A stretch of 64,000 bases of DNA from Armatimonadota bacterium. Lineage in GTDB: Bacteria > Armatimonadota > UBA5829 > DTLH01. The stretch is from contig JACPPP010000046.1 of the NCBI GenBank assembly GCA_016190935.1, positions 20,317-84,316 on the forward strand. The letters run 5' to 3'. Each line of letters opens with the position of its first letter. Within the stretch, counting starts at the first letter, position 1. The notes beneath the pieces are model-generated. The model searched no databases. It saw only the letters and a program-made list of their open reading frames with translations, and was not told where the DNA came from. Below are positions 4,363 to 27,782 of this stretch, one piece after another. A program made the position numbers and the translations under genes.

Positions 4363-5720
4363 GCTGTCTCTATCACCACATGCTCAACTATTGCGCCCAC
4401 TTCGGCGATGCCCCTGCGAAAGACTGCCGCGTACTCCGCGATTTCCGTCGCTGAATAGTCGGAGAGCGGCCCTGTCTTGTGCACCAGGATTTCTGCGAGA
4501 GCAGGAGCCTGTGCAAGGCGACGGCTCATCATCTGTAACGACCTCACGTCGGCTGATTCAGCCTGCCTGGCATCAAGGGCACGCTCCTTCAGGTCAGGGA
4601 TGAGGTATCTGGTCGGGTCATTGCCAAACGCCGCATGGATCGAAGCGCGGCGGATGAGGCACGGCACACAGTATCCGCAGTGACGTGGGGAAAGTCCCTT
4701 CCACCGCCCCTTCACGATGGACGAGCATGAGACCGTGATATCCATCGCTTCCCGCAGAAGAGCCTCATTGCGGCACTCGGCAAGCATTTCCCCCTTTGTT
4801 CTGAACCGATAGGGGTTCAGTAGCCGCGCGCCCAACCCAAGGTTATTGATAAGCTCCTGCCAGCGCGTCATGTAGAACGGGTGTGTAGTCCGCGTGCTCC
4901 ACGCTCCTAGCCGCAACGGATCGAGCGGAACATTCAGCGAGATGAGTCCGTTCTCCGGGACAAAGATCGGTGTCACGCCTTCCAGTGCACTTGCGGCCAG
5001 GCTAGCGAGTGCAAAGAAGATAAATGAGCGTCCCCGTGTAGTCGTCTCGGTCCCCATGTCCGCCATGTCATTCCTGTCAAAGCTCACATTCGCACGGACA
5101 CGCCGCGGACCCATATCCCCATAAACTTTGCCGAGCCTTGCCGCACAAGTCTCTTGGCTCTTGGTGCTCGCATCTCGGTAGTGACTGACGAACAGGGGAT
5201 TCCTTCCGGCTTCGAGAAGATCGATCGCGCCAACAAAGCTATCGAGCCCTCCCGAGAACAAGGAGACGCTATCAAATGTTGGACTTACCGGCTCAGACGG
5301 CCTGTCGATTAGCGTATCTATTTCCTTCTGTCTTGCGCGAAAAGAGACCCGCCAGATATCACCCGTGAGGAATTGCAGAATCCGCTCAATGAGATCGTCG
5401 TCCGCAGACCATCTTTCCGGTTCGGTCACGGGAACATAGAGATCGATCTCTCGCGTCCAACTGTCCTGCGCATCATCTGCCCGCGAAATCCGCGTGTCCG
5501 CTGCCGTGACAGTCGCGGCCAGGATTGCAAGATCGATAGCAGCCTCGGGCGGATACATACCGCGGTGGGCGAGCTGACCAAGCATCTGGCCGATCCCGTG
5601 ACCCACGCGGCGTTGTCCGTCGACGAAACGCAGCTCTGTGATCTGCGAGGATCTATCGCTGACGCGAACATTGTTCGTGTCGGCTGGGTTCAGCCGGACG
5701 ACTATGCTGTGACGTTTCAT
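4359..5720 (-). CDS. qatC: QatC, QueC-like PP-loop ATPase (7-cyano-7-deazaguanine synthase-like) of the Qat system
   Basis: SLFSGGLDSFVGAIDLLEAG PP-loop (SGGxDS) and C-terminal Cys cluster CGYCVPC typical of QueC. Start taken at internal Met 5720, which forms an ATGA overlap with the upstream gene stop. Confidence 0.8.
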   Translation of the reverse strand: MKRHSIVVRLNPADTNNVRVSDRSSQITELRFVDGQRRVGHGIGQMLGQLAHRGMYPPEAAIDLAILAATVTAADTRISRADDAQDSWTREIDLYVPVTEPERWSADDDLIERILQFLTGDIWRVSFRARQKEIDTLIDRPSEPVSPTFDSVSLFSGGLDSFVGAIDLLEAGRNPLFVSHYRDASTKSQETCAARLGKVYGDMGPRRVRANVSFDRNDMADMGTETTTRGRSFIFFALASLAASALEGVTPIFVPENGLISLNVPLDPLRLGAWSTRTTHPFYMTRWQELINNLGLGARLLNPYRFRTKGEMLAECRNEALLREAMDITVSCSSIVKGRWKGLSPRHCGYCVPCLIRRASIHAAFGNDPTRYLIPDLKERALDARQAESADVRSLQMMSRRLAQAPALAEILVHKTGPLSDYSATEIAEYAAVFRRGIAEVGAIVEHVVIETA

Positions 5721-6594
5721 GTTTCCCGGTCTCCCAGCACTTGCAGAAGGTTCCATGCGTCCAGATAGGTTCTGTCTACGACCTCACGGACTCCTTGATC
5801 CGACATGTTCGATAGCTGCGTCAGGTCTCCCCCAAAGGAGTCCCGCACGCTCCTCTCAATGTAACCCCTGAACTGCTCATCGAACCCTTGGATATCACCG
5901 AGGTCTTCGGCCAGGCTGAATCCGTTCACGCCAATCTCCTGATAGAGCCGCGCCTCGACGGTGTGTGCGACAAAGCTCAGGAAGATTTCCTGTACCTGTT
6001 CCGTTGACAGCGTCCCGAGATTGTCAATCCCAAACTGGTCCAATGCTGCAATCGTCTCCAGCCACGCATCCCGCGCGATTGCCTCATCGACGAGGCCACC
6101 GTCACGGCAGACGACCTCCGTCAAGCCGATGAATACGTCCTGCACACCTTGGCCCGACAGGCTTTCGAGGTTGAGTTGGCGCAGAGTCTCCTGCACTCCA
6201 TCGCGCTGAAAGCCCCGGAAAACGCCCAGTACATTGCTTGCCGCCGCACGCGATGGTCCCATGCGTCGAACCGCATTTCCGCTTCCGCCCGTGCCGCTGC
6301 GGACGTAGTCACGTACTGCTCTTCGAAGGCCCCTCCGTCGCTGCCGCCGGAGCCAGCGAACCGCGAGAAGTTCGACCGTGCGCTCCTGAAGCGCTCCGGC
6401 TCGGCAGGCGGCGGTAACAGCGGCCGCTTGTCGCTATCCCGGTCGCCGGGCGGGGGGACTTGACCGTCTGAACCGTCATCCGGTGTTTGCGAGTCATCAC
6501 CGCCGGGCAGCGGATCCGTGTCCATCCCGTCGAGCCAACTCGGCACGAGCGGTGTGTTTGATCCGGAGCCGGACGAAGAACCAGACGTCCCCAT
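5717..6594 (-). CDS. qatB: QatB-like protein, apparently split by a frameshift (track ORFs 6121-6594 and 5717-6262 in different frames)
   Basis: Start ATG at 6594 overlaps the QatA stop (ATGA). The N-terminal part is a Gly/Ser/Pro/Asp-rich low-complexity region; the C-terminal part (MGPSRAAASNVLGVF...helical) continues in another frame. The canonical Qat system has four genes, so two ORFs here suggest a frameshift (real or sequencing error). Confidence 0.45.
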
Positions 6595-8528
6595 CAGCCT
6601 GTCCCCTTCCCAAGTGCGGGCAATGCTGCGGATGCCGCTTGCTTAAGGAGCTTGTTGTCCTCCTGGTTTGCCCATCCCTGCACCACGTCCTGGAGTTCAC
6701 GCTTCGCCTTCTCTTCCGTGACAGATCCGCTCCAGCCCTTCACAACCCAAAGTCCCAGCCCCCTGGGATCAAGGCTGCCCAGCAGTTTCACGACTTCGCC
6801 CTGAAGCCTTGGATGATGTTTCGCGACGATCGACAGACCACCGATCCCCTGCGGTTCCTGCGTAAAGCTGCCGGCACCGAGAACCCGCTCACGAAGCGCC
6901 GCAAAGACGTTTTCAGCATCTCCCGGTGTGAGCGCTTTGACCTCAGCTTCGGCGGTTCGGACTTCCAACTGTGAGCCGCAGAGCTTTGCAATCAAGGCAT
7001 CCAGTCCGCTCGGTCCGCCAGCACTGGTCAGCAAGCGCTTGTCGCGCGCGACGAAAATGTAAGGACGCAAATCAGTGTCGCCGACCTGAGGCTGAATCGT
7101 GAGCCAGCGTTTGAGCCAATCACGCTCAAGCCATTTCTCTATCCCCGGTTCCACGGAGACCTTGTCAGTGGCAGTGTCTTTACCAGGCATCTCGTGCTCC
7201 GTGCCGTCGCGAGGCTCTTCTGCGAACCTTTCGAGGGCAACGATATCCCCCGCTTTGCCGTCGCCAGACGACATCGCCTGTGCCGCGACATGTTCGTAGA
7301 AATCGGGTTGGAAGCGTTCCGCCAGCATCAGCTTGGCCAGCACGGGCCGGCTCACCAGTTCATCGAATCCCCGGGCGCGCGCAATCAACTGCCGGAGCAA
7401 CAGCGCATTCAGGAATCGTTTGACCTGCCGCGGATTCCCCTTGGTCCCTTCCGCCAGGATGGGTGCTATCTGGTGCGCTAGGACGAACGCCGCGTTCAGC
7501 TCTTCGACTCTGGCGGGGTCCGTGGCCTGGACATCGCTTTGCGGAAGGTCCGTCCCGAGCCAAGGCTTTCTTAGACCCTCCTTCGCCTTTTCGAGCAAAA
7601 TGCCGAAGCCAGGATGATCTTCGCCGACAAGACTCTGCAGGAGCAGCAGCAGCACGTAGACACGTGTTTCCTGCGCGCCCAATGACGGGATTCGAAACGG
7701 TACTTGGATCAGCTTCTCAAGGTAGTTTCGTGCATACGGTAGTGGTCCGGACGCTGCGGGCAGATCAGGAAAGTGCTGCCGCACGGCGTATTCGATCATC
7801 GCCTCATCGGCGCCGATAACGAATGCGGTCTTTGGAACGAACAGAAACAGCCGAATGGCCTCCAGCGTTTGGATAGCAGTTGCCGGAAGACAGCGGTCGA
7901 GATCGTCGATCAAAACCACGAGCTGACCGATCTTTGCTTGGTCGAGCAGTTCCTGAAACTCCTGACGGAACGCGTGGATCGTTTCCGGCAGGTTGTCACC
8001 GTCCTCCGCTGGTTTCAGGAAGCCACCAATCGCCTCTAGCTGCGTCCGCACATCGGCAGGGTCGATATCCGCGACATTCTGAACCACGTTCTGTAGAGCA
8101 GCGACTGCACTGCCGATCTGATCCGGGGAAGGTAGACCCGTGAGGACATTGAACGCGCCGCCGCCGCATCGTTTCGCAACTTTCAGCCAGTCGACCCGCC
8201 TCAGCAGTCGGCCCGCCACCTCCCTAACCTTCCCTATGGTTGAGCGCTGTCGACACAGCTCCGTGATTGTGGACTCAATGAGAATGGTCTTCGCATCATC
8301 GAATCCTTCGAACGTCCAACCATTGAACCAGAGGACCGCAACATCCCCATCTTCCGCCAGCTCGCTTTCAATCATTTTGAGGACGCTTGATTTGCCTGCT
8401 CCCCAGTCGCCATGGATTCCGATAGTCACCGGACCGCTGCGGTTGACCTTTAGAATCTCGACAACAGTCTGCGAGATTGCCTCACAATTCAGGTAATCAA
8501 CTTCCGTCTCGTAATCTGGAATCAACAT
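6594..8528 (-). CDS. qatA: QatA, KAP-family P-loop NTPase of the Qat system
   Basis: Walker A in VTIGIHGDWGAGKSSVLKMIE and Walker B VVLIDDLDRC. The long helical C-terminal region is typical of KAP NTPases. Start chosen at Met 8528 (MLIPDYETE). Confidence 0.8.
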   Translation of the reverse strand: MLIPDYETEVDYLNCEAISQTVVEILKVNRSGPVTIGIHGDWGAGKSSVLKMIESELAEDGDVAVLWFNGWTFEGFDDAKTILIESTITELCRQRSTIGKVREVAGRLLRRVDWLKVAKRCGGGAFNVLTGLPSPDQIGSAVAALQNVVQNVADIDPADVRTQLEAIGGFLKPAEDGDNLPETIHAFRQEFQELLDQAKIGQLVVLIDDLDRCLPATAIQTLEAIRLFLFVPKTAFVIGADEAMIEYAVRQHFPDLPAASGPLPYARNYLEKLIQVPFRIPSLGAQETRVYVLLLLLQSLVGEDHPGFGILLEKAKEGLRKPWLGTDLPQSDVQATDPARVEELNAAFVLAHQIAPILAEGTKGNPRQVKRFLNALLLRQLIARARGFDELVSRPVLAKLMLAERFQPDFYEHVAAQAMSSGDGKAGDIVALERFAEEPRDGTEHEMPGKDTATDKVSVEPGIEKWLERDWLKRWLTIQPQVGDTDLRPYIFVARDKRLLTSAGGPSGLDALIAKLCGSQLEVRTAEAEVKALTPGDAENVFAALRERVLGAGSFTQEPQGIGGLSIVAKHHPRLQGEVVKLLGSLDPRGLGLWVVKGWSGSVTEEKAKRELQDVVQGWANQEDNKLLKQAASAALPALGKGTG

Positions 8529-8970
8529 GGAGACCTCACCGCCAACACGTACCTCGTGCTCACTGCCCTCTGCATCCAAACTAGGCCTGTCATCAAGTCT
8601 TCTCAAGCGACGGTTCGCTCTACACCCATTGTAGGATAAGCGGTGAAGCTGCTCGCCATCAACGCCAGCGCGACACTCCATCCGCTCTGAGCCGTACTCT
8701 AGAGCCTATGCATACGAGCGCTACTATCAGACCACCAATTGTATCATTCGCAGTCACATTCTTCCAATCCGAGCGAACCCAAGGATGTGTCAGCCGGGTA
8801 ACGGGCTCGATCGTTGCTGATTCGTCGTCGCTGGAGCTACATCGAGCCTGGGGAGAGGAGCAACCTCGGTCCACGCCCCGCTTGCACGCCAGCCTGCGTT
8901 TCTGCTATACTTTACCGACCCACAAAGGACGTTATGATGCACTATCCGATACAGCAGGAGGCCAGCAGTC

Positions 8971-9955
8971 TTGGCTACCGAAATCACTCCTTTCACCGGC
9001 AACGCCCTTGCCGGAAGGCACACTTTCATATTGCCTCGGGTCATCCAGGATGCCGGCGAGGACGCGTCCAGGCGGTTCCTGGAGTTCTTCACCGCAGATA
9101 TCAGGAATCCCAATACCCGCCCGCCAGGCATATGCCCGTGCCACAAGGGACTTCTTCCTCTGGTGCGAAAGGCACAGGTTGTCTCTGCATCAACTTGAGC
9201 CTATGCTCGTAGCGGCGTATATCGAGGAACTTCAGAGGTCTCAGTCCGCACCGACAGTGAAGCAGCACCTTGCCGCTATCCGGATGCTCTTTGATTACCT
9301 GGTGGTCCGCCAGGTAATCCCAATGAACCCGGCTGCATCAGTCAGAGGACCGAAGTATGTCATCAAGCGTGGAAAGACTCCTGTCCTATCGGCTACCGAC
9401 GCCAGGCGGCTCCTCGACAGCATCGATGTGTCCCAGGTGGTCGGGCTCCGCGATCGCGCGCTTATAGCTCTCATGGTCTACTCCTTTGCCCGGGTCAGTG
9501 CAGCAGTGAATATGCGCGTGGAGGACTACTACGCCAACGGAAAGCGCTGGTGGATCCGGCTTCACGAGAAGGGGGGCAAGTTTCACGAAGTCCCCGTGCA
9601 TCACAATGCTGAGGCCTATCTGGACGCTTATATAGCTGCTGCCGGCATCAGCGATGACCGCAGGGGTCCGCTTTTCCGAACTGCTGAAGGAAAGACCAAA
9701 GTGCTAACGACCCGCGCGATGACCAGGAACGATGCCCTGAGGATGATAAAGAGGAGGGCTGCAGACGCAGGACTCGCTGTTAACATCTCCTGCCACACAT
9801 CCCGGGCCACCGGGATCACTGCCTACCTGGAGAACGGCGGGACTATAGAAAACGCACAGGCAATTGCTGCGCATGAGTCTCCACGGACAACCAAGCTCTA
9901 CGACAGGACAACTGACCAGATAACGCTTGATGAGATCGAGAGAATAACCATATAG
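8971..9955 (+). pseudogene. Tyrosine recombinase/phage integrase (XerC/D-like) with an apparent +1 frameshift near 9118-9124 (extra C in a cccgcccgcc run); TTG start at 8971 preceded by aggagg
   Basis: Frame 1 from 8971 gives LATEITPF...RRFLEFFTADIRNPNTR, then stops at 9198. Frame 2 from 9122 continues RQAYARATRDFFLWCERHRL... through the catalytic region (R...HxxR...Y: HTSRATGITAYLENGGTIENAQAIAAHESPRTTKLYD). Joining the two after deleting one C gives the canonical ...NPNTRRQAYARATRDFF... motif. Confidence 0.6.
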
Positions 9956-10000
9956 CCAAGACCGCCGAACGGGAAAGGGGCAGGAATGACGTCCAACCTT

Positions 10001-11506
10001 TCACCGCAACATGAAAGACGGGGAGTAGCTTGGCTGTTGGTCTTCCATCAACTGTATCTCCTGACACACCGCATTGAACCGGTGGCCTAGAAAGCATGCG
10101 CCACTCAGCGGACCGAAGTAGTAGAGCAGCAGCTTCGTGGCACGCCATCTGCGCACAAACGCCCTTACCATATCCTTAGCCTCATCCGCAAGCGCAACCA
10201 GGTCTCCTGTGCTACGGATGCAGTCTCTACCCAGCTCGCGCTCAGGCCGAAGCAGCAACAGCGCTGCTATCTCCTCACTGCGTTCATGAAGATGCTCCCG
10301 CACTGCGTCGTCGATGGTGCCAGTCACACTTATACCAACGGCCACTGTCGTTCCGCTTCCATCAATGATCTCACCGTCGAAGTTACTCCCCTGATCGCTG
10401 ACTATCACCCTAAAACCATCGGCCTTTCGATCACTCGTGCGCCAAAGAACTCCGTTCTGGTCCACCTCAAGCGTGTATCCGGCTGCATCTCTGAACATAT
10501 GGCCAAACGCAAACCACGCGGAGAGCCTCGCCTTCCCTCGCACCCTGATCAGCCTCATGGAGGTAGACGCGCCCAGCTCGCACTTCAGCCTCTCCAACTC
10601 TGGCAGAAGGTGCTCATTCCAATCATACTGGGGCTGAAGTTGCCGACCCTTGGCGGCTGCACTACCTTCGAAGTAGTCGCACCAGTCGATCACGTAGTCG
10701 GGCTCAAGCTCATACTTCTCACGTACAATCGTGTTCAGGTGCACCGTGATGCATGGTTCCTGGCCTTGGGGCAGCAGGAGATCGTGCTTTCTCACAAGTT
10801 CATCCAGGTCATGCAAATACATGTCCTTCTTACTGGCCTTGATCCATTCCCTTACGATGCTCACGGCCAGCAGCAGTGCATCCTCATCTGGCCTCAGCCC
10901 AAGGCTGCACATCCGCTCGGCCACCAAATCGCGTAGGTCGTCGGCACCTGTTGAGCCGATCTTGAAGCGGATGCAGCCGGCAAACTCCCTCAGCTCGTCG
11001 GGACCGGCATCCAAATGAGAAAGCCAGTTCCCGTGTACCTCAGAATGCTCTTTGTGCTCAAAGAAGCTGGCTTTGATGCCTCCGTTTTCGTCCACGCAGG
11101 CGGTGAAGAACATATCATGTCGATCCCATGTCCAGTTGCTAACCAGATATAGTTCAATCGGGCCGGGCTTCGAGTCGCGTAGTAGCTTCCACGACCGCCA
11201 AAACTTCTGCAGTAGGCTCGATCTTTCTCTGGTGCGAGCCATCAGGACATCGCTGGAATACTGATTCCTTTGGTCCACGTGATACTTGATCTGGTAGAAC
11301 CGACTCGGTTTCAAGGTCTCAGGCTCGTACTCAATGGTAACGTCGTCCATTGATCCGGCTTCGGCATCCTCGATGCAGACTCGTCGGACCATCCTCTGCG
11401 GCATCTTCAGCTCGAGAGCCAACCACCAAGCGTAAAGGTGCTGATAATCATCGCCCTTTAGCCGCGCGATGACTTGATTCGCCATGTTATCCTCCATTCG
11501 GCGCAC
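10001..11506 (-). CDS. cap4: Cap4-like CBASS effector: N-terminal DUF4297-type restriction-endonuclease-like nuclease domain fused to a C-terminal SAVED domain
   Basis: C-terminal LLLYYFGPLSGACFLGHRFN resembles the SAVED/CHAT-like terminal motif. N-terminus has GDDYQHLYAWWLALEL...IEDAEAGSMDDVTIEY...QIKYH, consistent with DUF4297-like nuclease. Sits immediately downstream of a CD-NTase. Confidence 0.65.
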   Translation of the reverse strand: MRRMEDNMANQVIARLKGDDYQHLYAWWLALELKMPQRMVRRVCIEDAEAGSMDDVTIEYEPETLKPSRFYQIKYHVDQRNQYSSDVLMARTRERSSLLQKFWRSWKLLRDSKPGPIELYLVSNWTWDRHDMFFTACVDENGGIKASFFEHKEHSEVHGNWLSHLDAGPDELREFAGCIRFKIGSTGADDLRDLVAERMCSLGLRPDEDALLLAVSIVREWIKASKKDMYLHDLDELVRKHDLLLPQGQEPCITVHLNTIVREKYELEPDYVIDWCDYFEGSAAAKGRQLQPQYDWNEHLLPELERLKCELGASTSMRLIRVRGKARLSAWFAFGHMFRDAAGYTLEVDQNGVLWRTSDRKADGFRVIVSDQGSNFDGEIIDGSGTTVAVGISVTGTIDDAVREHLHERSEEIAALLLLRPERELGRDCIRSTGDLVALADEAKDMVRAFVRRWRATKLLLYYFGPLSGACFLGHRFNAVCQEIQLMEDQQPSYSPSFMLR

Positions 11507-11518
11507 ATTTTGGGCGCC

Positions 11519-12424
11519 TCACGATAGCGGGAACAACGGGCCAAACAGGTCTCGCCACGCCCTTAGCGCCTCTCCGTTCTTCCCGCTCTTTTCCAACTGA
11601 ATGGCCTGCGCAGCCGCGTATTGTGCATTGAGAAGCGCGGCTTTTGCCTTCTCGCGCTGCGAGTAGTCCATGCTATCACTTACCGCTGGCCCCAGCCCGG
11701 CAGGATCCGGCCATTCATCATGGATGCGGTCAGCAAGGGATGCGAAGAAGGACTTCATCTCATAGCGGAAATCGCCCTGGAAGCCGCCGTAGAGAACCTC
11801 CAGAGCCATAACCTCAATGAGGAAAGACGGTTTGATCGGCTTGCCCTGCTGGCTGTTCCACTTCTTCATCATACGGACGAGCCCTTTCCATTCTCCGGAA
11901 TACGCCCGCTGTGCCTCCACAGCCTTGTCGTAGTGGACCCTGGGGTTTGTCTTCACCCAGTCTGCCGTGATGGTGTCAGGGATATCGTAGTAGTCCTCCA
12001 GAGAAAAAGCCGGCACAACATCGAAGCTCATGACCTTACCATCTGTCTCATCGTCTACTGCCTGTACGCCGAAATCCACCGTTACTGACCGGCGCTGGCA
12101 GCTCACCCGGTTCGCGCCGTACTTGTCCGCGAGCACGTCACGAACCGCGCCGAGCACCTCAGACGGCAGGCTATCGCGGTAATGCCGTTCTTTCTCCCCG
12201 AGCACACAGAAGATGTCGACATCCTTCAGAGGCTTTGTTTTCGTCCACCTTGCATAGGAGCCTGTGAGGAAATCGTGCTCGATGTCAAAACAGCAGTCCA
12301 GGTAGCTGCGGATCTCCTTCTGGCGCCGCGAAGCATCTTGCTGCTCGCGGTCGCTCAGCTCAAGGCGGCTTCGGAGTGTTCGGAGAGCATCCGCTATGGT
12401 TATCATTGTTACACCCTCCTCCAA
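11519..12424 (-). CDS. cGAS/DncV-like nucleotidyltransferase (CD-NTase) of a CBASS system
   Basis: Nucleotidyltransferase signature GSYARWTKTKPLKDVDIFCVL (GS...DhD), about 300 aa. Operon context with TRIP13-like and SAVED proteins. Confidence 0.8.
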   Translation of the reverse strand: MEEGVTMITIADALRTLRSRLELSDREQQDASRRQKEIRSYLDCCFDIEHDFLTGSYARWTKTKPLKDVDIFCVLGEKERHYRDSLPSEVLGAVRDVLADKYGANRVSCQRRSVTVDFGVQAVDDETDGKVMSFDVVPAFSLEDYYDIPDTITADWVKTNPRVHYDKAVEAQRAYSGEWKGLVRMMKKWNSQQGKPIKPSFLIEVMALEVLYGGFQGDFRYEMKSFFASLADRIHDEWPDPAGLGPAVSDSMDYSQREKAKAALLNAQYAAAQAIQLEKSGKNGEALRAWRDLFGPLFPLS

Positions 12425-12909
12425 TAACCGGCTGACGCACTCAACCCGCTTCCGTCCACGGTCGTGCCTATGCTCTGCCGGACCAGTCCATCAGTAGATC
12501 GCAGTGTGGTGCTGCTCCAGCCGGATACGTCAGCGCGACCTGGCTTCGTGCTCGCGACGATCCGGTAGTCGCGGCTGCTGGGCCAGCATCCGGCTTTGAG
12601 AATGTGGTATTTCAGATCATCGGTATCGACCCAGAATGCGCCGTCACCGGTAAAGCTGTAGCAGATCGTGAAGTCCCATCTGCAGACGAGCCTGTCCGTT
12701 GACGGATTGAACACCTCAAGTACCAACTCAGTCAGGTCCCTGGTCTCAAGCCACCGCCTGAGGCCCCGTTCCAGCACAACCCACTCACCTGCCATCTTCT
12801 CCGGGCTGAGTCCGCTGGCGACGATGATGTCTTTCAGAGACATCAGCAGCTTGTCCGCGACATACGTCACGGAATGTGTGTATGTGTTTACCATAACTAC
12901 TGTGCTCAT
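12409..12909 (-). CDS. Small protein, putative bacterial HORMA-domain protein (Cap7/Cap8-like) of type III CBASS
   Basis: 166 aa, beta-rich. Assignment is by size and position between CD-NTase and TRIP13-like ATPase; no diagnostic motif recognised. Confidence 0.35.
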   Translation of the reverse strand: MSTVVMVNTYTHSVTYVADKLLMSLKDIIVASGLSPEKMAGEWVVLERGLRRWLETRDLTELVLEVFNPSTDRLVCRWDFTICYSFTGDGAFWVDTDDLKYHILKAGCWPSSRDYRIVASTKPGRADVSGWSSTTLRSTDGLVRQSIGTTVDGSGLSASAGYWRRV

Positions 12910-13373
12910 CGTCTGAAGAACGCCTCCTTACTGGCCACCGTATTCGCTTGGGTGGCATCCCGGCCTTTATCCGGTACGGCCTCCGCCAAATCGCGTGCGC
13001 TGACCCTGACCGAGCGCCGCGTGAGAGCAGCCTGAACCCATTGGAGATCCTCCGTTGGGCAGGGCAAGGACATGTGCCAATCCCCATCTGTTGGGCAAAA
13101 CGGAAGCGCCGACTCGCTGGCATCTTCGCCGGACACGGCGTCTTCGCCATAAAGGCAGTAGATCCGCACGCGGGGCCCGCTGCCCCATAGCACGATGGGC
13201 GCTTCCTTCATAGCTTCAGAAGCGATCAATGAGCTCGCTATTCCCGCGACGCCACTCAGTTCATCCCTGGCGTTGTTCGCGGACGCTGGTGCGAGCAGAT
13301 CGGCTATCGCAGCCCACGTATCTGCCGCAGACCGAACTGGCGACGAGATCACCCGCCTTGCTATTACTGTCAT
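12906..13373 (-). CDS. Small protein, putative second HORMA-domain protein of type III CBASS
   Basis: 155 aa, immediately downstream of the TRIP13-like gene with a 4-nt overlap. Assignment by context only. Confidence 0.35.
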   Translation of the reverse strand: MTVIARRVISSPVRSAADTWAAIADLLAPASANNARDELSGVAGIASSLIASEAMKEAPIVLWGSGPRVRIYCLYGEDAVSGEDASESALPFCPTDGDWHMSLPCPTEDLQWVQAALTRRSVRVSARDLAEAVPDKGRDATQANTVASKEAFFRR

Positions 13374-14350
13374 CTTGTCTCCTCCTGGATACCAGCAGAG
13401 ACACCCTTCTCGTGCTGCACAGCTCGCAGTAGGAGCTCCGCTGTCAGTCTGTTGGGGTCCAGAGCCGTCTCTTTGTCAAATGTGCACGCCGCTGGAACAA
13501 TCTTCCTTATGCGGCGACCATCAAGCCCCACGCACAATTCCGCCGCCGTCCTAAAGCGGGAGTCCGACAGGATCTTGCCTGCCCCTGTATAATGCTTGGC
13601 CAGCGCCTGTACCGCATCCGTTAGGATCTGCGTGCAAGCCTGAGCGTTAGGCATTCCGATGTTCAGGACTAGGTCCGCCCGCGATACGAAAGCAGCATCG
13701 ATAGCCCGGGGGAAGTTGCTAGTAGCGACGAACAGCAACCGAGGGTACCGCGCAGCCAGTTGGTCTAACTGAGCCAAGACGGCGTCGGTAGCACGATGCA
13801 CGTCAATGGGGTTTGCCTCTAGGCTCAGTTTGCTTCTATCGGCGGCAAGCGTCTCCACCTCGTCCAAGAGCACCACCAGCGGACCGCGTAGTGCCGGCTC
13901 CGCTATCGTGGTGCCCAGCAACTCGGTTACGGCTCTCTGGCTCTTGCCCAAGGCGGCGCTCGCTAGGGCGTGTGGTTCCACCTCAAGATAGGTGAAGTTC
14001 GAGTTCTTGCCGAAGACCTCAGCCGTCCTGGCGGCAAGTCCGCGCGCAAGCGATGTTTTGCCGGTTCCGGGCTCGCCTACCAACAAGATAACCCCGTGCA
14101 ACGGGATTGCAGCTTTGTCCACGGTAGGACGCAGCGTAAAACTCAAGATAGCCTGGCTGAGTAGCCGGTCCTTGAGCTGTTGATCCACTATGATCGAGTC
14201 CCAAAGCTTAAGGAACTCGCTATCGGGGAGCAGGCGGCTATCCAGAATCCCCTGGGCCTCTACACCCCCTGACATTGCTCCTGATTGCGCACCAGGTCGG
14301 GTGCGCCCCGTGCCAGGCGCCACGCCTGGCCGAAACCCGTTACTATTCAT
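13370..14350 (-). CDS. TRIP13/Pch2-like AAA+ ATPase (Cap6-like) of type III CBASS
   Basis: Walker A HGVILLVGEPGTGKTSLARGLA, Walker B VVLLDEVETL, sensor region FVATSNFPRAIDAAF. Start chosen at Met 14350, preceded by a ggaagga RBS on the coding strand. Confidence 0.75.
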   Translation of the reverse strand: MNSNGFRPGVAPGTGRTRPGAQSGAMSGGVEAQGILDSRLLPDSEFLKLWDSIIVDQQLKDRLLSQAILSFTLRPTVDKAAIPLHGVILLVGEPGTGKTSLARGLAARTAEVFGKNSNFTYLEVEPHALASAALGKSQRAVTELLGTTIAEPALRGPLVVLLDEVETLAADRSKLSLEANPIDVHRATDAVLAQLDQLAARYPRLLFVATSNFPRAIDAAFVSRADLVLNIGMPNAQACTQILTDAVQALAKHYTGAGKILSDSRFRTAAELCVGLDGRRIRKIVPAACTFDKETALDPNRLTAELLLRAVQHEKGVSAGIQEETR

Positions 14351-14466
14351 AAGTGTCTCCTTCCCGGAGCAGATGCTTGCGGTGTGGCCGTCACCCCACA
14401 CCGCTTGTCTACTCGCGGCCATTTGCGTTGCTACTCAACGCAAGCGTTTATTCATAAGAAAACCGC

Positions 14467-15051
14467 TCACCATGCATGCTGGACCGCCATGTCGCCCAAG
14501 CGGTAGTGTAACGCGGTGAAGCTCACGCCGATGGATTCGGCGAGCCGTCGGAACCCGGAAGAAGTCTGGACATTGTAGCACGGAATTGCCTCCTGCAGCA
14601 GGTCCTTAGGCATCAGAAGCCTTGCCGCATAGCGATCTGCCGCAGACTCCTTCATGTCGCGGTCTCCGTCCCTGCATATGATCCTCGTGTCTGAGTCTCC
14701 GAACAGGAGACCTTGACTCAGGACGGCCTGGTTCACGTGCATCTGCCAGTGTCCGATCTCGTGGGCGATGGTGAACCTCTGCATACCTGGACAGTCATCA
14801 AAGCTCTGAAGGTAGTTCTCGTTCAGATATACAGTCCTCTCCACTGGGAAGAGCGACCCCAGAACCGACTCTCCCAGAGGGGACAGGTCTTCGTACACAA
14901 GCGCCAGATCAAGAGTCCGTTCCAGTATTGCCTCCACGGGAATGGGCAGAGCAGGAGTCCAGTCATCCTTGCGCGCATGAAACCTTATCAGCTCGTAGGC
15001 TTTCTGCTCTAAGACATTGTTGCTGAACGGAACGTCAAGATTCTTGAGCAT
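14467..15051 (-). CDS. capP: CapP-like ImmA/IrrE-family zinc metallopeptidase (CBASS regulator)
   Basis: HEIGH zincin motif in FTIAHEIGHWQMH. Paired with an upstream XRE HTH gene in front of the CBASS operon. Start at internal Met (MLKNLDVPF). Confidence 0.7.
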   Translation of the reverse strand: MLKNLDVPFSNNVLEQKAYELIRFHARKDDWTPALPIPVEAILERTLDLALVYEDLSPLGESVLGSLFPVERTVYLNENYLQSFDDCPGMQRFTIAHEIGHWQMHVNQAVLSQGLLFGDSDTRIICRDGDRDMKESAADRYAARLLMPKDLLQEAIPCYNVQTSSGFRRLAESIGVSFTALHYRLGDMAVQHAW

Positions 15052-15400
15052 CGTCCTTCGTCTTCTCCATCTCTTCGTCGAGTATCTCCTTTGCTTTGGA
15101 TGGCCCGTGATCTTTCCATGCCCGTAGCAGTCTGGTGGCCTCGGGGTTGCTGACAATGAACTCATGTATCGCAGCATCTACCTTGTTCGCCAGCGCCAGA
15201 AGCTCATCAGCATCCAGTTCCAGGGTCTTGGAGAGCTTGAGTATCACTTCCTCCGATGGTGGTGGAAATCTCCCTGTCTCGACTTTGCTGAGATAGGTGA
15301 AATCAATGCGAGCGGCATCCGCCACTTCCCGCAAACTCAGCCGCAACTCCTTCCGGCGGTCTCTTATTGTTGAACCAAAAGTCGGCTCCATCAGCTTCAC
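15035..15400 (-). CDS. capH: CapH-like XRE-family HTH regulator (CBASS regulator)
   Basis: TFGSTIRDRRKELRLSLREVADAARIDFTYLSKVETGR is a classic HTH_3 motif. Immediately upstream of, and slightly overlapping, the ImmA-like peptidase gene. Confidence 0.7.
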   Translation of the reverse strand: MKLMEPTFGSTIRDRRKELRLSLREVADAARIDFTYLSKVETGRFPPPSEEVILKLSKTLELDADELLALANKVDAAIHEFIVSNPEATRLLRAWKDHGPSKAKEILDEEMEKTKDDAQES

Positions 15401-15450
15401 CGATTTATTCTACCATATTGTTGAGTATGTATGCAACATGCAACCCCGCC
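15401..15450 (-). promoter_or_regulatory. Candidate sigma-70 promoter for capH: TTGCAT-(18 nt)-TAGAAT on the minus strand
   Basis: Reverse complement of 15401-15450 reads atgTTGCATacatactcaacaatatggTAGAATaaatcggtgaagctg, directly upstream of the capH start. Confidence 0.3.
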
Positions 15451-15464
15451 GGGGGATATCGCTG

Positions 15465-16484
15465 TCAGGTGAGTCTGCGAAGGCATGAGGCCAGTAGCGA
15501 GAGCAGTTCAGCCAGCCTCAGCACTGCCTTTTCTCGGATCACCAGCCGCTCGCCCACTCTGTAGGCCCTATCGCCGGTCTTGTCGATGTATTCCTGATCA
15601 ATGATCCCGTCCTTATGCGCCAGTAGATGTCGCTGCTGAAAGTATCTTACCAGTTCCTCAAGATCCGGCCTGGGGACGAGCTCGTCATAACCTTTACCAG
15701 CAGCCTTCCGCCACAGATCGCTCGATTCCGCAATACTCTGGAACACATTCTTGCGGCGCTTGAAATGGCTGGCAGTGGGAAGCAAGTCGAAAGTAGCCTC
15801 GGCGAATCGCTGAAAGGCCGCAACGAGTTTCGTGAAGGACTCCTCCAACATCAGCCGCTGCACGTTCTCAGCGGTATCGCGGTCCGGCATTGACTGTCGG
15901 ATATCTGGGATGTGCGCCACAGTCTTTCTGACGGCATCTACGGCCACCTCGAACATAGTCGCAGCGGAATTGTGGCCACAAGCTGGACAGAAGAAAGCTG
16001 CGCCAAAGGCCGAGTAGCGGCAGTGGCAGCCCTCGCATTCGAATCTCTGCCGCATCATCTCCGCAACTTCGTAAGGCACTACGACTTGCCTTGGGCCCGG
16101 TTTGTAGGACATAGACATTGTGATGAACCCACCGCGCGGCTGCGACCGGTTGAATGACTGTGTATCACGCCGCAGGGCCTCTCCGAGTTGGTCGCTGATG
16201 TAGCGGAAAGCGTAGTCCCGGATGTACTTGTTCTGCTGCTTGGTGTTGAAGGCGCTCGGGTCCGATTTGCGTCCGCAGATAGGACAGTAGGCTTCCTCTT
16301 CGGGCACCTTCTCCTTCCAGTCGTCCATCATCACCTTGAACTCACTCTTGCACCGTGAAGACGGGCACTTCCGGTCCAGATAGCCGTCATCGTCGAGTGG
16401 CATTGGGATGGGAGCGCTCACACTGTCACCCCATTGGCGGAGCAGACGCTGCGTCTGATCGAACATAGCTGCCTCCTGAGCCAT
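15465..16484 (-). CDS. Double zinc-ribbon protein with C-terminal alpha-helical domain carrying an HEPN-like Rx4H motif (QRHLLAH); function unknown
   Basis: Two CxxC...CxxC clusters (CPSSRC...CPICG; CEGCHC...CPACGH), then a helical C-terminal half with RHLLAH. Overlaps the upstream GHKL gene by about 40-59 nt, suggesting translational coupling. Confidence 0.35.
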   Translation of the reverse strand: MAQEAAMFDQTQRLLRQWGDSVSAPIPMPLDDDGYLDRKCPSSRCKSEFKVMMDDWKEKVPEEEAYCPICGRKSDPSAFNTKQQNKYIRDYAFRYISDQLGEALRRDTQSFNRSQPRGGFITMSMSYKPGPRQVVVPYEVAEMMRQRFECEGCHCRYSAFGAAFFCPACGHNSAATMFEVAVDAVRKTVAHIPDIRQSMPDRDTAENVQRLMLEESFTKLVAAFQRFAEATFDLLPTASHFKRRKNVFQSIAESSDLWRKAAGKGYDELVPRPDLEELVRYFQQRHLLAHKDGIIDQEYIDKTGDRAYRVGERLVIREKAVLRLAELLSLLASCLRRLT

Positions 16485-18459
16485 TCTTCTCGTCAGTAAT
16501 CAAGCACTCTGGTATATGGTCAGAGTGCCGTCTGCGAAGGTACTGCAGTGCCGTCTCGCAGTCCGGTTGGTACTGGAGATGGTCCTCGTAGAACTTGAGT
16601 CGTGCTTTGCAGTCCTCAATGACCTGGCCCCATGTCTTCACCCAGATTCTGGTCTTGCCATCGTCGCTCTCGTATAGCAGTCCCAGCGGCTTGTCCTTCT
16701 GCCGCGCCATCCGTTGCACCGGATCTGCGATCTCGTTCGAAAGCAACCAGAACACCCAGCGCGTGCCAGTATCTTTGAAGCGCTCGTCGGCTTCCACGGC
16801 AAATGCGTAGTCCTGAATCTGGGTCATGGCCTTCTGATCGATCTTCTTCCTCGGTGCCTTGAGCTCTATGACCAGGTGCTCCCGCTCCTCCACCCGAGGC
16901 TGAGGCACACGCCGCGAGAGCATTAGGTCCACTATCCCCTTGCTGCCGTCGGCACGCAGCACCGGTGCCGCGACCTCATCCTTACGCCCCAGCAGTTTCA
17001 GGTGCTTCCTCAGCACTTCATCGAGAGACTGGTCGTCAACGCTGAGGTGGAACTCCTCGCCGAAGATCCAAGTGTGGTCCGCAAGCACTCGGTGCAGCTG
17101 GCTTCGCTCCCGTAGAGCCTCTTTCGACGCGGGATCGAAGACGAGGATCTCAAGCCCCCGCAGGAAGTTCAGCCTGTCGGCGACCGTCTTTGCAGCGTTG
17201 ATAACGGCGGCAAGGCTGGTCTTCCTAAGCAGTTCGGCCAACTCGGCCACCTTCGCCTGGGGGAGGTCCAAGAGTTCTTGGACGACTTTCAACGTCTCCT
17301 CGGGCCTCTCTTCGAGGGTCTCCCGCAGCAACCGCAATTGGAACTTCCTGGTCTTCTGTTCGGAGCTGTCGAATTCCGGGAGGTAGTTGCTTATACTCGC
17401 AGCGCAGATATCAAAGACATCGCGTCTCGCCTGATCCAGTGGGCCGGTCGGTTCGTCTGGATAAGGATAGATGCCCTCCTGCTTCCACTGCTCGATGATA
17501 TCTGCTGACTTCTCGGCCTCTTTCGACCGCAGATAGCTTCGAAGGGTCTTCCTCGCGGATTCGACGAGAACCCGGATACGCGGGTCGAGCTCCAGAAGCT
17601 GCAGCGCATTCTCATCTACGCTGTCCTGTATAAGCTGGCTCTTCAGGTAGGCTGTGAAGTTGGCAGTCGAGGAGACGCCAGCGGGTATCTCATCCCTGGC
17701 GACGCCATTGGTATCGCAAAGCAGAATTCTCTTCTCCGTCTTGAACGCCCACTCGATAACGGTTAGCATCGGATTCTCCCCTACCAGTTCCGCCAGCTCC
17801 GGGATGGCAACCTCCAAGTTGCACTCGCTGACAATGGCGTGGAAATAGTCAACGGGACGGCCATCGTAGACTATGGAGACTCCAGGGTAGTTGCGCAGGT
17901 AGAGCGCGAAGGTCTCCGTTATCTCGGCGATCGCGTCCGGCTGTGTAAGCGACTCGAACTCCCTTCGCAGATTGGTAATCCGCACGGCAGTGCCCGTCTT
18001 ACGGTGGCCGTCGCGCTGAGGGTCCTCAAGCCTGAACTCCGCCAGCCTATCGAAGTTGCCATGGATGCGATAACTAGATAGCGCACCGTTGTCTGAGTAG
18101 TTCGTTTCCCATATCACGCTATGTCCCAGCGTGAACGCCCGGAACCTGCCTTTGCCCGCTTTGCCGTGCAGTATCCGCTTGTGCCGTCTCGACTTCCGGC
18201 CCGGCCGCTTCCATGAGCCGCCCAGATTGCCGAAGGCATCGTCCGCCTCAGCATAGGATATGCCGTGTCCGTCATCTGTGACAACTATCTCGTCAATAGC
18301 GCCCAAGGGAGAGCGGGCAAATTCCACAGTCACTAGCTCAGCATCGGCATCAAGCCCATTCCAGATCAGCTCAGCGATAGCGTGGATGGGTTTGGCACCC
18401 CCGACCACTCTCTGAAGGTAATCATCCTTGACCTGCACCTGTAACGTCTTCATCCACAA
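16426..18459 (-). CDS. MORC/paraMORC-like GHKL (Bergerat-fold) ATPase fused to a C-terminal PD-(D/E)xK restriction-endonuclease-like domain
   Basis: N-terminus IHAIAELIWNGLDADA...IVVTDDGHGISYAE matches HATPase_c (N-box and G1 DxGxG). C-terminus GIVDLMLSRR...EHLVIELKAPRKKID fits a D...ExK nuclease motif. Confidence 0.6.
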   Translation of the reverse strand: MWMKTLQVQVKDDYLQRVVGGAKPIHAIAELIWNGLDADAELVTVEFARSPLGAIDEIVVTDDGHGISYAEADDAFGNLGGSWKRPGRKSRRHKRILHGKAGKGRFRAFTLGHSVIWETNYSDNGALSSYRIHGNFDRLAEFRLEDPQRDGHRKTGTAVRITNLRREFESLTQPDAIAEITETFALYLRNYPGVSIVYDGRPVDYFHAIVSECNLEVAIPELAELVGENPMLTVIEWAFKTEKRILLCDTNGVARDEIPAGVSSTANFTAYLKSQLIQDSVDENALQLLELDPRIRVLVESARKTLRSYLRSKEAEKSADIIEQWKQEGIYPYPDEPTGPLDQARRDVFDICAASISNYLPEFDSSEQKTRKFQLRLLRETLEERPEETLKVVQELLDLPQAKVAELAELLRKTSLAAVINAAKTVADRLNFLRGLEILVFDPASKEALRERSQLHRVLADHTWIFGEEFHLSVDDQSLDEVLRKHLKLLGRKDEVAAPVLRADGSKGIVDLMLSRRVPQPRVEEREHLVIELKAPRKKIDQKAMTQIQDYAFAVEADERFKDTGTRWVFWLLSNEIADPVQRMARQKDKPLGLLYESDDGKTRIWVKTWGQVIEDCKARLKFYEDHLQYQPDCETALQYLRRRHSDHIPECLITDEKNGSGGSYVRSDAASAPPMG

Positions 18460-18709: not shown

Positions 18710-19909
18710 TCAGGCGCTGCCCCCACCATGCAGGCTTTGACGTGGGCGAACCTGGACCGGCACTACGCTTTCACGCTCGTCGTCGATCACTAGGGTCTGG
18801 CCGGGACCACTCAACTGCTTTATCCGGGAAGGGAGTCCGTCCGATATGTAGTCTTGGCTCAACGCGTCTATGGCCCTGTAATCATCCCGGGACGTTATCC
18901 TGTGAACAATGCGAATACCACACTGCGTCAGGATCTCAGCATCTATTGCTGCTGGTTGCTGGCTCGCCACCAACAGAGAAAGCCCGGGTTGCCGCCCTTC
19001 TTTGGCCCATCGAATGAGTATCTCCTTCGACAACGTGCTTCGACCGCTTGGACAGAAGTTGTGAGCCTCGTCTATGGCCAGCCACACCTTTCTCATGTCC
19101 GACGCCAGTCCCAGGGCCTCACGACGGCGGGCAATCGTGCGCATGCGGAATATGAAAGTAGCCAATACTGCCAGTACAAGATTGCGGAGGCCGTAGCGGC
19201 CCTGGGCGATGACGCTCAGGTCAAGAATGTTTATCGCCTCCGGCTGGAGTATCTCCCAGATCTCACGATAGCGGTGTTCCTCGAAGATTTGCCAGTCGTG
19301 TGCCATATCTAACTTCCTTTGTATGGCTTCCTTCGTCTGGTCGAGGCCGTGCATCTTTATGACCTCCGCCGCTATATCGTCTATCAAGAACTCTCTACCG
19401 TGTCTCTGACCACATTGGCGGACAGCCTTAAATAGCATGATGCCCATAAGCCCGTTGATGTCCAAATCAAAGAGATCGCACCACATTTCGGGTGTCAGGT
19501 CAGACGGGTTGAGCCTCAGCCCCTGAATGTTGATGCCGCGCTTGCGCATCTCATCAACAATATCTGCGCCGCCGTAGCGTTCCACTGGATCGCCAGGAAC
19601 CAAAACGTTCACGTTAAAGCCCCGGGCATCTCGGCTGTATTCCCACAGCTTGTCCGTCTCCGTGAATGAAGGATTCTGTTCAGCCATGCTCCAGAATATG
19701 CCCTGCGGGTCCACGACCAACACGATATCATTGTTGAGCCGAGACAACTCTTCAATGAGGACGCCGAGAGTGTAAGACTTGCCTGTTCCGGTCTTGCCGC
19801 AAACAAGTATCCTCTGGGACGTGCAGCATGGGATACTAACCAGGCTGCCGTCGTCCATCTCTTTGCCAAGGACCAGATTATTGTCTAACATTTCTAGCCT
19901 CCACGCCAA
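18710..19909 (-). CDS. HerA/FtsK-superfamily (DUF87-like) P-loop ATPase
   Basis: Walker A RILVCGKTGTGKSYTLGVLIEEL, Walker B VWLAIDEAHNF, about 400 aa. Confidence 0.6.
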   Translation of the reverse strand: MAWRLEMLDNNLVLGKEMDDGSLVSIPCCTSQRILVCGKTGTGKSYTLGVLIEELSRLNNDIVLVVDPQGIFWSMAEQNPSFTETDKLWEYSRDARGFNVNVLVPGDPVERYGGADIVDEMRKRGINIQGLRLNPSDLTPEMWCDLFDLDINGLMGIMLFKAVRQCGQRHGREFLIDDIAAEVIKMHGLDQTKEAIQRKLDMAHDWQIFEEHRYREIWEILQPEAINILDLSVIAQGRYGLRNLVLAVLATFIFRMRTIARRREALGLASDMRKVWLAIDEAHNFCPSGRSTLSKEILIRWAKEGRQPGLSLLVASQQPAAIDAEILTQCGIRIVHRITSRDDYRAIDALSQDYISDGLPSRIKQLSGPGQTLVIDDERESVVPVQVRPRQSLHGGGSA

Positions 19910-19918
19910 CGAGCACTG

Positions 19919-21046
19919 TTACGCCGTTCTGATAATCAACGGGACTACCGACTCCCACGCCGAGATTCCTCCGTGCACGCCCCACTCGTTGCTTTTCAGT
20001 TCCCTCGTGGTAAACGGTAGCTTCAGCAAAGAATAGGCATTGCCCATGCAAGTTCTAACGCAAGCATAGTGACGGAGACGGCTGCCGCGAATGTAGCGGA
20101 CGTGACGAGAATCGTCAGGATGCAGATCAGCGACCGCAGTCCACTTTCCGTCTAGCTGCTCGCGCCAAAGAATCCCATGATCTGCAGTCAGACAAGCCAA
20201 CACACTGCGATTCCCTCTACAGAGAAACTCAACCAAGGAGTCATACCGAGCCAACAACTCGGACAGATAATGCTTAACAGGAGGTTGGTCCTGGTGGCGA
20301 TGGCAAAGGCCATCTAAGCCTGGTGCTACGATCTGGATGTATCCCCGACTCATCTCTTCCGCCTGAATCATCCGAACACACTCATCGAACCTTCGAATCT
20401 TACACACTTGGCTGGAGCCGAAGACGCCATAGAGGTCGCTGGCCAAGGTGTTGCTGTCAGTGTCGAAATACGTGAATCCAAGTTGATGGCGGTACCCTAT
20501 CGAGAACAGCCTCTCGGATATCGAGGGCTTGCCTATCACTTCCCGGTAGCCGACCTCAGTAGTAGTTGCCCCATCTACGAAACAGGGATGATTTTCCGGA
20601 TCATCCGGCAGGTCGTAATAAGATAGTCCATCCACAACCATCAGGGCTACAACGTCCGGTTCCAGCAGTTTGGCCTTCTCTGCCAGTATGCGCCCTACGT
20701 CCCGTTGGGTGGTCATCACGTCCTTTACCGAGTCGAAGCGATCATAGAGCCTTTCAGATAGCAGGAACGGATCTGGACGCCGGCTGATGTTGTACGCCGG
20801 AAAAGGCCAGTTGGCGGGATCGTCCAACAGGTACTCACGGCGCTCGTCGCATAGCGCCGGATGGTCAAGAAGGTTGAGAAAGGCCGACGCCTCTCGGATA
20901 GGTCGAGCATCATCCAGAAAGAGCAGGTTCAGCGGATTGCCTCGGAACGCCGGCGGATAGGAGTTCAGAGTGGCCGATAGTCCCGACACGAGGGCGTCAG
21001 TGTCGCCACCCGGCTCTCTCGACTCGTGACTCAGACGGCGGCTCAT
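19919..21046 (-). CDS. PglZ-domain (alkaline-phosphatase superfamily) protein, short form
   Basis: C-terminal GVHGGISAWESVVPLII matches the conserved terminal HGGxSxxExxVP motif of PglZ/BrxZ domains. Sits in a cluster with BrxC-like ATPases. Confidence 0.55.
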   Translation of the reverse strand: MSRRLSHESREPGGDTDALVSGLSATLNSYPPAFRGNPLNLLFLDDARPIREASAFLNLLDHPALCDERREYLLDDPANWPFPAYNISRRPDPFLLSERLYDRFDSVKDVMTTQRDVGRILAEKAKLLEPDVVALMVVDGLSYYDLPDDPENHPCFVDGATTTEVGYREVIGKPSISERLFSIGYRHQLGFTYFDTDSNTLASDLYGVFGSSQVCKIRRFDECVRMIQAEEMSRGYIQIVAPGLDGLCHRHQDQPPVKHYLSELLARYDSLVEFLCRGNRSVLACLTADHGILWREQLDGKWTAVADLHPDDSRHVRYIRGSRLRHYACVRTCMGNAYSLLKLPFTTRELKSNEWGVHGGISAWESVVPLIIRTA

Positions 21047-27779: not shown

Positions 27780-27782
27780 CCG

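Follow-up and report, generated by a model that had tools for sequence, protein, structure and literature searches.

Seven co-oriented open reading frames (ORFs) lie on the minus strand between positions 10001 and 15400 of the 64-kb stretch analysed here (64,000 nt of contig JACPPP010000046.1, called the window below), which derives from an Armatimonadetes metagenome-assembled genome (MAG). With good confidence, this locus can be regarded as an intact and complete two-HORMA type III operon of CBASS, the system of anti-phage signalling that is based on cyclic oligonucleotides, headed by a repressor/peptidase leader on the same strand. From the promoter onward, the genes encode a CapH-like helix-turn-helix (HTH) repressor, a Zn-peptidase related to CapP, a TRIP13-like ATPase, HORMA3, HORMA2, a cyclase of the CD-NTase family, and a Cap4-like effector (Table 1). 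A sequence-only reading had proposed a complete type III CBASS here, and this was borne out: the seven ORFs lay at or near the proposed coordinates, each matched its expected family, and all components were identified by profile searches.

The same reading had treated the two small proteins as HORMA candidates and the end of the effector as SAVED. The small proteins were 55 and 52% identical to the solved HORMA2 and HORMA3 of Pseudomonas aeruginosa, respectively, and the C-terminal domain of the effector matched SAVED (PF18145, 6.9e-23). Both small proteins are HORMA and the domain is SAVED, and the component calls therefore stand. The genes for the HTH protein and the HEIGH peptidase were located ahead of the operon, behind a TTGCAT-18-TAGAAT promoter that was kept in relatives.

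The coupling of the genes was tight, with 4-nt overlaps of cap6 with cap8 and of cap8 with cap7, and with 2 nt separating cap7 from cdnD. The catalytic motifs were intact in the cyclase, the ATPase, the peptidase and the effector nuclease. Judged from the sequence, this two-HORMA type III CBASS with a Cap4-like effector is apparently functional.

CBASS core genes

The cyclase gene cdnD encoded an enzyme of the P. aeruginosa CdnD type. Its best solved relatives were the P. aeruginosa CdnD structures 6p8u/6p82 (5e-107, 57% identity), and it matched SMODS (7e-20), the PADLOC cyclase profile (2.9e-132) and NCBIfam CBASS_cyclase_b (323 bits against a cut-off of 200). The protein was 100% identical to P0001, which also has 295 aa. 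The active site comprised G49-S50, D62-x-D64, and D129; among 18 homologues, G49, S50, D62, and D129 were invariant and D64 nearly so. Clade D05 is the label given to the P. aeruginosa enzyme (Ye et al., preprint 10.1101/694695). A D05-type assignment was inferred for cdnD, taken over from the nearest solved homologue rather than from a phylogeny.

The cap7 product matched bacHORMA_2 (PF18173, 8.6e-71) over residues 2–165 of 166, so that it was full length including the C-terminal safety belt, and its closest structures were 6p8s/6p8r (1.9e-58). By analogy with its P. aeruginosa counterpart, it is predicted to be the peptide-binding, cyclase-activating HORMA. The cap8 product was closest to the P. 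aeruginosa HORMA3 structure 6p8p (5.8e-42) and matched the PADLOC HORMA profile (5.9e-56). It had no match in the local Pfam copy, and its homologues on related contigs carried PF27322 (Cap8). The same analogy suggests that it is a scaffold HORMA, locked in the open state.

The cap6 product was a TRIP13/Pch2-like AAA+ ATPase (PADLOC TRIP13, 6.6e-131; Pfam AAA, 9.1e-18), with Walker A GEPGTGKT and Walker B LLDEVE read from the translation. Its nearest solved relatives were the eukaryotic PCH-2/TRIP13 proteins (4xgu, 5.5e-29; 5vq9, 4.5e-28), which ranked above other AAA+ proteins. A eukaryote-like TRIP13 has been described for two-HORMA operons (Ye et al., 2019, preprint 10.1101/694695).

Gene order among related loci

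A total of 80 genome loci with cyclase relatives were retrieved, and the window proteins were mapped onto them. The four core genes were present in 75 loci, and in every one of these their order and strand were TRIP13, HORMA3, HORMA2, and cyclase. The effector followed directly after the cyclase, and a Cap4-like homologue occurred in about 30 of the 80 loci. The layout TRIP13-HORMA3-HORMA2-cyclase-effector was shared by the closest metagenomic relatives (L081–L085; cyclases 71–74% identical) and by a Pseudomonas sp. MAG (L029). The whole seven-gene architecture recurred in an Acidobacteriaceae MAG (L001) and in the Logan contigs L086 and L081 taken together.

The sequence-only reading had singled out the gene order as an oddity, with TRIP13 and the HORMA genes ahead of the cyclase. 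This was refuted: the order was invariant in 75/75 loci, and thus there is no unusual gene order at the window. The published numbering agrees with this, since in Table S1 of Lau et al. the CD-NTase lies four genes from capP in "Type III (HORMA2/3)" systems and adjacent to it in "HORMA1" systems (10.1101/2022.04.27.489752). For two-HORMA type III CBASS the order in the window is canonical, and cyclase-first is how one-HORMA systems are laid out.

The Cap4-like effector

The effector consisted of an N-terminal PD-(D/E)xK-type nuclease (E39, D47-D48, and Q65-x-K67) fused to a C-terminal SAVED sensor. Besides the Pfam match, the SAVED domain was recognised by NCBIfam NF033611 (112 bits against a cut-off of 33), and the protein matched the PADLOC profiles SAVED_PDDEXK (6.9e-77) and LmuA (Cap4-nuclease; 3.1e-07). 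Both domains aligned with the Cap4 structure 7yib (1.3e-11), including the DDV and YQIK motifs, and residues 8–89 of the effector aligned with residues 2–90 of 7yib. Residues E39, D47, D48, Q65, and K67 were invariant in 26 homologues located after CdnD.

The effector had been read as Cap4 (DUF4297-SAVED). The nuclease-SAVED architecture of Cap4 held, but the family names did not: Pfam DUF4297 gave no match to the effector at E ≤ 0.01, and the NCBIfam Cap4 equivalog NF051438 reached only 38 bits against a cut-off of 160 and covered only the SAVED part. For these two reasons, the effector is best described from its sequence as Cap4-like, not as a Cap4 equivalog.

Table 1. Positions in the window of the genes of the CBASS locus and of its promoter and operator-like sites.
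Feature	Position	Strand	Description
Promoter P1 with operator O1	15407–15443	-	-35 TTGCAT 15431–15436, 18-nt spacer, -10 TAGAAT 15407–15412
capH-like XRE-family HTH repressor	15035–15391	-	118 aa from ATG 15391; longest ORF from GTG 15400
Minimal CapP/ImmA-like Zn-metallopeptidase	14467–15051	-	194 aa from ATG 15051; longest ORF 14467–15177
Operator O2	14423–14443		Perfect palindrome TTGCGTTG-AGTAG-CAACGCAA = TTGCGTTGAGTAGCAACGCAA
cap6, TRIP13/Pch2-like AAA+ ATPase	13370–14350	-	326 aa from ATG 14350, AAGGAG site ahead; longest ORF to 14422
cap8, HORMA3	12906–13373	-	155 aa
cap7, HORMA2	12409–12909	-	166 aa
cdnD, CD-NTase of P. aeruginosa CdnD type	11519–12406	-	295 aa; longest ORF 11519–12424
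Cap4-like effector	10001–11485	-	494 aa, likely start ATG 11485; longest ORF 10001–11506

Start codons were refined from ribosome-binding sites and homologue lengths; those given for the capH-like gene and cap6 are likely starts.

The repressor and peptidase genes

The first gene of the leader had a very short 5′ leader and encoded an XRE-family HTH protein (HTH_31, 4.2e-11; HTH_3, 2.5e-10; PADLOC capH, 4.8e-07). Its matches in the PDB were ClgR, DdrO, SinR, and the CapH HTH domain 7t5u, and its homologues were 115–118 aa long and started with ATGGA(A/G). The start of the peptidase gene overlapped the end of this gene by 17 nt. The peptidase was identical to an NCBI "ImmA/IrrE family metallo-endopeptidase" (P0121, 194 aa) and matched Peptidase_M78 (1.5e-10) and PADLOC capP (3.9e-22), the latter only at profile positions 8–155 of 242. 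In the family alignment, the HEIGH motif at residues 97–101 was joined by E135 as the third Zn ligand. An AlphaFold2 model (mean predicted local distance difference test score 92) gave CapP 7t5t, IrrE 3dti, and PprI 8sln as best folds, with template modelling (TM) scores of 0.56 for the query and 0.41 for the target.

CapP has three domains, namely a peptidase, an HTH-like linker, and a GAF domain (Lau et al., 10.1101/2022.04.27.489752). The peptidase in the window had no GAF domain, as its 194 aa ended after the linker domain. The alignment to Thauera CapP 7t5t stopped at residue 174 of 291, and the close homologues were all 157–235 aa long. Together with the partial profile match and the partial superposition, this indicates that the peptidase is a GAF-less, ImmA-like minimal form of CapP. 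A displaced GAF ORF is not possible, because the stop of the peptidase gene and the start of cap6 are only 116 nt apart. The possibility that the peptidase is a three-domain CapP cut by a frameshift was rejected on two grounds, the short length common to the close homologues and the same short distance past its stop. Lau et al. already flagged 23 "Minimal CapP" entries in their Table S1 (10.1101/2022.04.27.489752).

Single-stranded DNA (ssDNA) is bound in the groove between the peptidase and GAF domains of CapP, and the HTH of CapH docks on the GAF domain (Calloji et al., PMC13228613). About a third of CapPs also carry a cysteine-switch loop between HExxH and the third Zn ligand. Acidic residues occur in this loop of CapP as well (PMC13228613). 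In the window peptidase, the acidic loop ICRDGD separates H101 from E135, and its C126-R127 was invariant across the family alignment. This candidate loop resembles the cysteine switch of CapP, but the spacing differs, as the Cys lies 25 residues past HExxH against 13 in CapP.

The orientation of the pair was compared among the 72 related loci with enough upstream sequence. An M78 peptidase gene occurred within 1.5 kb of TRIP13 in 27 of them, and it was divergent from the CBASS in 22 and co-oriented in five. The pair in the window was co-oriented. In the vast majority of published cases, the CapH/CapP genes are found upstream on the opposite strand, with one promoter region in common with the CBASS (Lau et al., 10.1101/2022.04.27.489752). 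On viral contigs, related short peptidases (27–43% identity) were accompanied by a co-oriented HTH gene in 74/74 loci, and no CBASS genes were found beside them in these 74 loci. The HTH/peptidase pair is architecturally of the phage ImmR/ImmA type. The label CapP was therefore only partly right: the protein is an HExxH Zn-peptidase of the CapP/IrrE fold, but it has no GAF domain and is co-oriented rather than divergent.

Directly upstream of the capH-like gene, two further genes were located at 15465–18459 on the minus strand. One encoded a 677-aa GHKL ATPase (HATPase_c_3) with an SduA/DUF4263-like C-terminal part. The other encoded a 339-aa protein that matched PADLOC PDC-M14A (4.6e-18) and contained CxxC pairs resembling a Zn ribbon and a possibly HEPN-like RHLLAH motif. 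The GHKL ATPase, a 334-aa counterpart of the 339-aa protein, and the HTH/peptidase pair were kept at 67–79% identity in L088/L089 (L088, 4584–7576), with no CBASS after them. In L001, a homologue of the 339-aa protein (49% identity) was located directly after the Cap4 gene, at 7652–8662.

Promoter and operator-like sites

The promoter P1 scored below the threshold of a generic promoter scan, and its position was conserved in five other loci. The element O1, TTGCATGTTGCATACATACTCAAC at 15420–15443, contained GTTG-N10-CAAC after a TTGCAT direct repeat and overlapped the -35 box and the spacer; its exact pattern occurred once in the 64-kb window. The aligned loci had the form TTGCATGTTGCA-N8-CAAC over the -35 TTGCAT and the 18-nt spacer, ahead of a TAnAAT box. 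In L086/L087, L088/L089, L090/L091, and L092, the motif was at an equal distance from the TAnAAT box and the ATG of the capH-like gene, and in L001 the motif found here was shorter.

The second site, O2, was situated in the 116-nt gap between the stop of the peptidase gene (14467) and the ATG of cap6 (14350). Its palindrome had no mismatches, and it was the sole match in 64 kb. An equivalent, TTG(C/A)GTTG-N5-10-CAAC, directly followed the peptidase gene, ahead of the first gene of the cargo, in L086/L087, L088/L089, L090/L091, L092/L093, and L001. A loose regular expression of the motif gave 25 matches in 139 kb of peptidase-homologue loci compared with 3.6 in shuffled sequences, and almost all of the matches were at the O1 and O2 positions. 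A search for further operator copies, such as upstream of the HATPase gene, found none. O2 was also considered as an intrinsic terminator and rejected, as there was no T-run on the minus strand and the terminator-like call belonged to the opposite strand.

Two other co-oriented subfamilies had distinct sequences, which were again common to the O1 and O2 positions. The second class was GTACGC/GCGTAC in L018, L019, and L022, and the third was GTTCAC(T/C)AAACA in L042.

Relationship between the leader and the CBASS

The loci with close peptidase homologues and an identifiable next gene (L086/L087, L088/L089, L090, and L092) all had the HTH, peptidase, and cargo genes co-oriented, and the cargo varied. 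The pair was followed by TRIP13 in L086/L087 (peptidase 69% identical), by a SAVED and a SMODS gene in L090 (52%), and by an E2/E1/JAB operon in L092 (53%). In L088/L089, where identity was 67–79% across the block, the order was GHKL ATPase, 334-aa gene, HTH, and peptidase, and then a small HNH gene and no CBASS. L001 contained the full seven-gene unit with a peptidase of 34% identity (tblastn). L086 and L081, which come from the same samples, together contained the whole seven-gene unit, beside phage terminase and portal genes and a serine recombinase gene.

The cargo of L090, which is labelled as a Thaumarchaeota MAG, comprised a SAVED protein, a DncV-like cyclase, and a 142-aa protein (6628–10423). 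That of L092 comprised a 61-aa ORF, a 371-aa protein without a Pfam match, an E2/E1/JAB fusion (744 aa), and a 249-aa protein (7535–12882).

Comparison of these loci suggests that the HTH/peptidase pair most likely controls the CBASS, because O1 and O2 co-vary across three specificity classes while the cargo changes. Some observations weigh against this. The same pair occurs in L088/L089 without a CBASS downstream, and the pair is therefore not CBASS-specific. No convincing sigma-70 promoter was found at or after O2 by eye or by consensus scan; in five of six loci, A/T-rich -10-like hexamers closely preceded O2, without a consistent -35 box. The peptidase also lacks the GAF half of the CapP ssDNA site, so that the CapP mechanism is not transferable as it stands.

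Two other explanations were weighed. The pair could form the end of the GHKL-ATPase/339-aa module that lies upstream, or an ImmR/ImmA-type switch for lysogeny or excision of a mobile element, with the CBASS merely inserted alongside and expressed on its own. The conserved block in L088/L089, from the HATPase gene to the peptidase gene without CBASS, is in line with this, as are the 74 viral loci with a short peptidase, a co-oriented HTH gene and no CBASS genes. Mobile elements are also close at hand, with phage terminase and portal genes beside the capH-like gene in L086 and recombinase genes beside the Cap4-like gene in L081 and the window. However, O2 separates the peptidase gene from the cargo, whichever that is, and co-varies with O1 in all three classes, and no operator precedes the HATPase gene. 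The HATPase module is missing in L086, L090, L092, and L001, where the pair stands directly before CBASS-type cargo. In the window, the pair is not followed by genes for excision or lysis. We consider an unlinked pair unlikely.

The seven genes could instead form a single transcript from P1, with O2 acting as an RNA hairpin (8-bp stem) in mRNA stability, processing, or translation of cap6. A perfect palindrome would indeed fold in RNA, no clear promoter follows O2, and in several relatives O2 is only 20–30 nt from the start codon of the cargo. Yet O2 matches O1 in sequence and not in symmetry alone, and O1 is not the same hairpin. The sharing of sequence between O1 and O2 recurs with other sequences in two more subfamilies, and in L086, L092, and L001 the palindrome of O2 is imperfect while the TTGnGTTG and CAAC blocks are retained. 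A role as a hairpin is thus even less probable than an unlinked pair.

The pair, with its two co-varying operators, may be a distinct and portable "leader cassette" of phage ImmR/ImmA descent that stands ahead of interchangeable defence cargo and senses infection by a route other than the ssDNA groove of CapP; we regard this as a tentative proposal, somewhat short of an even chance. Its cargo would then include two-HORMA CBASS, SAVED plus SMODS CBASS, the E2/E1/JAB operon, and the small HNH gene, a list that is offered just as tentatively. The peptidase of such a cassette may keep an autoinhibition of the cysteine-switch type through the invariant Cys126.

Proposed mechanism

The mechanism proposed here is modelled by homology on the P. 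aeruginosa and E. coli systems and applied to the identities, motifs, gene order, and operator-like sequences observed in the window (Ye et al., 2019, 10.1101/694695; Lau et al., 2022, 10.1101/2022.04.27.489752; Calloji et al., 2026, PMC13228613). The HTH repressor would bind O1 over the -35 box and spacer of its own promoter. It would also bind O2 and so keep the cargo off, whether through repression of a weak internal promoter or by standing in the way of read-through from P1. Once activated, the Zn-peptidase would cleave the repressor, and both operator sites would be freed. As the GAF domain is absent, DNA damage or ssDNA could be named as the activating signal by analogy only. Induction by DNA damage cannot simply be assumed for a GAF-less, co-oriented peptidase pair.

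In the CBASS itself, HORMA2 would capture a phage-derived peptide, close, and then bind and activate CdnD, with HORMA3 serving as a scaffold for the complex. The product of CdnD would be a cyclic oligonucleotide, and a cyclic trinucleotide, for instance cAAA, is the most likely one. In the Cap4-like effector, the SAVED domain is expected to bind this nucleotide, and the PD-(D/E)xK nuclease would then degrade DNA, which would lead to abortive infection. TRIP13 would strip HORMA2 off CdnD and so keep the system silent.

Genomic neighbourhood

A tyrosine recombinase/integrase gene (8708–9955, plus strand) converged on the Cap4-like gene with a gap of 45 nt, and a large serine recombinase gene (33019–34884, minus strand) was located ~18 kb upstream of the capH-like gene. 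Close CBASS relatives also adjoined recombinase genes (L081 and L083) or, in L086, phage terminase and portal genes. The CBASS unit probably travels on integrative elements or prophages.

Other defence genes were found on both sides, all on the minus strand. A complete QatABCD defence system occupied 3577–8681 (QatA, 2.8e-250; QatC, 1.7e-178; QatD, 1.6e-84). Its QatB was split into two overlapping ORFs, one covering profile positions 1–112 (6121–6594) and the other 112–291 (5717–6262), which suggests a frameshift, a pseudogene, or an assembly error. The genes at 26985–32154 encoded a DUF4007 protein (2.6e-84), a 1154-aa AAA_16 ATPase, and a protein with a PAPS-reductase domain; they resembled an Ssp-type DNA phosphorothioation module and may correspond to SspB/C/D. 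The region 18710–25576 contained a HerA/DUF87-like ATPase gene (PADLOC HerA, 1.1e-25; mad8, 6e-22), preceded by genes for a 375-aa and a 1344-aa protein without Pfam or PADLOC match and for a small P-loop protein. These genes, which lie between the Ssp-like genes and the gene for the GHKL ATPase, may form a defence module that is as yet uncharacterised.

Comparison with known systems

The closest characterised system is the two-HORMA CBASS of P. aeruginosa ATCC27853, which consists of CdnD, HORMA2, HORMA3, TRIP13, and NucC (10.1101/694695). The cyclase (57% identity), HORMA2 (55%), and HORMA3 (52%) were similar, and both systems have a eukaryote-like TRIP13. In contrast, the effector in the window is a Cap4-like nuclease-SAVED protein instead of NucC, the operon has an HTH/peptidase leader, and the host is an Armatimonadetes MAG. 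With respect to the CBASS itself, the locus is one more example of a well-described architecture. The practical lesson is that the cyclase-first order holds for one-HORMA systems only.

The characterised Cap4 proteins are known from type II CBASS. The effector shares the nuclease plus SAVED organisation and the D...QxK motif with the Cap4 of Enterobacter cloacae, Acinetobacter baumannii, and Moraxella osloensis (7yib, 6vm6, and 6wan), but the relation to characterised Cap4 is remote (E 1e-11).

CapH and CapP have been tied to type III CBASS, including 16 listed HORMA2/3 systems (Lau et al., 10.1101/2022.04.27.489752). Like the CapH+CapP pairs of E. coli MS115-1 and Thauera sp. K11, the pair in the window combines an XRE HTH protein and an HExxH Zn-peptidase of the CapP/IrrE fold with an operator at the promoter. 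It differs from them in being co-oriented, in having two operator-like sites, and in its GAF-less peptidase of 194 aa, compared with about 290 aa for their CapP. The co-oriented, overlapping arrangement of an HTH gene followed by a short M78 gene is that of ImmR/ImmA of Bacillus ICEBs1 and phage phi105, in which the repressor is inactivated by proteolysis (Lau et al., 10.1101/2022.04.27.489752). However, a CBASS operon follows O2 in the window, not excision or lytic genes, and the viral relatives are only 27–43% identical to the window peptidase.

The co-oriented, GAF-less leader with its paired operators is thus a modest regulatory variant and not a new system. A peptidase without GAF cannot use the published ssDNA-groove mechanism, yet it retains the invariant cysteine loop. 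The paired operators offer a testable handle on how a repressor/peptidase pair on the same strand gates a toxic abortive-infection operon.

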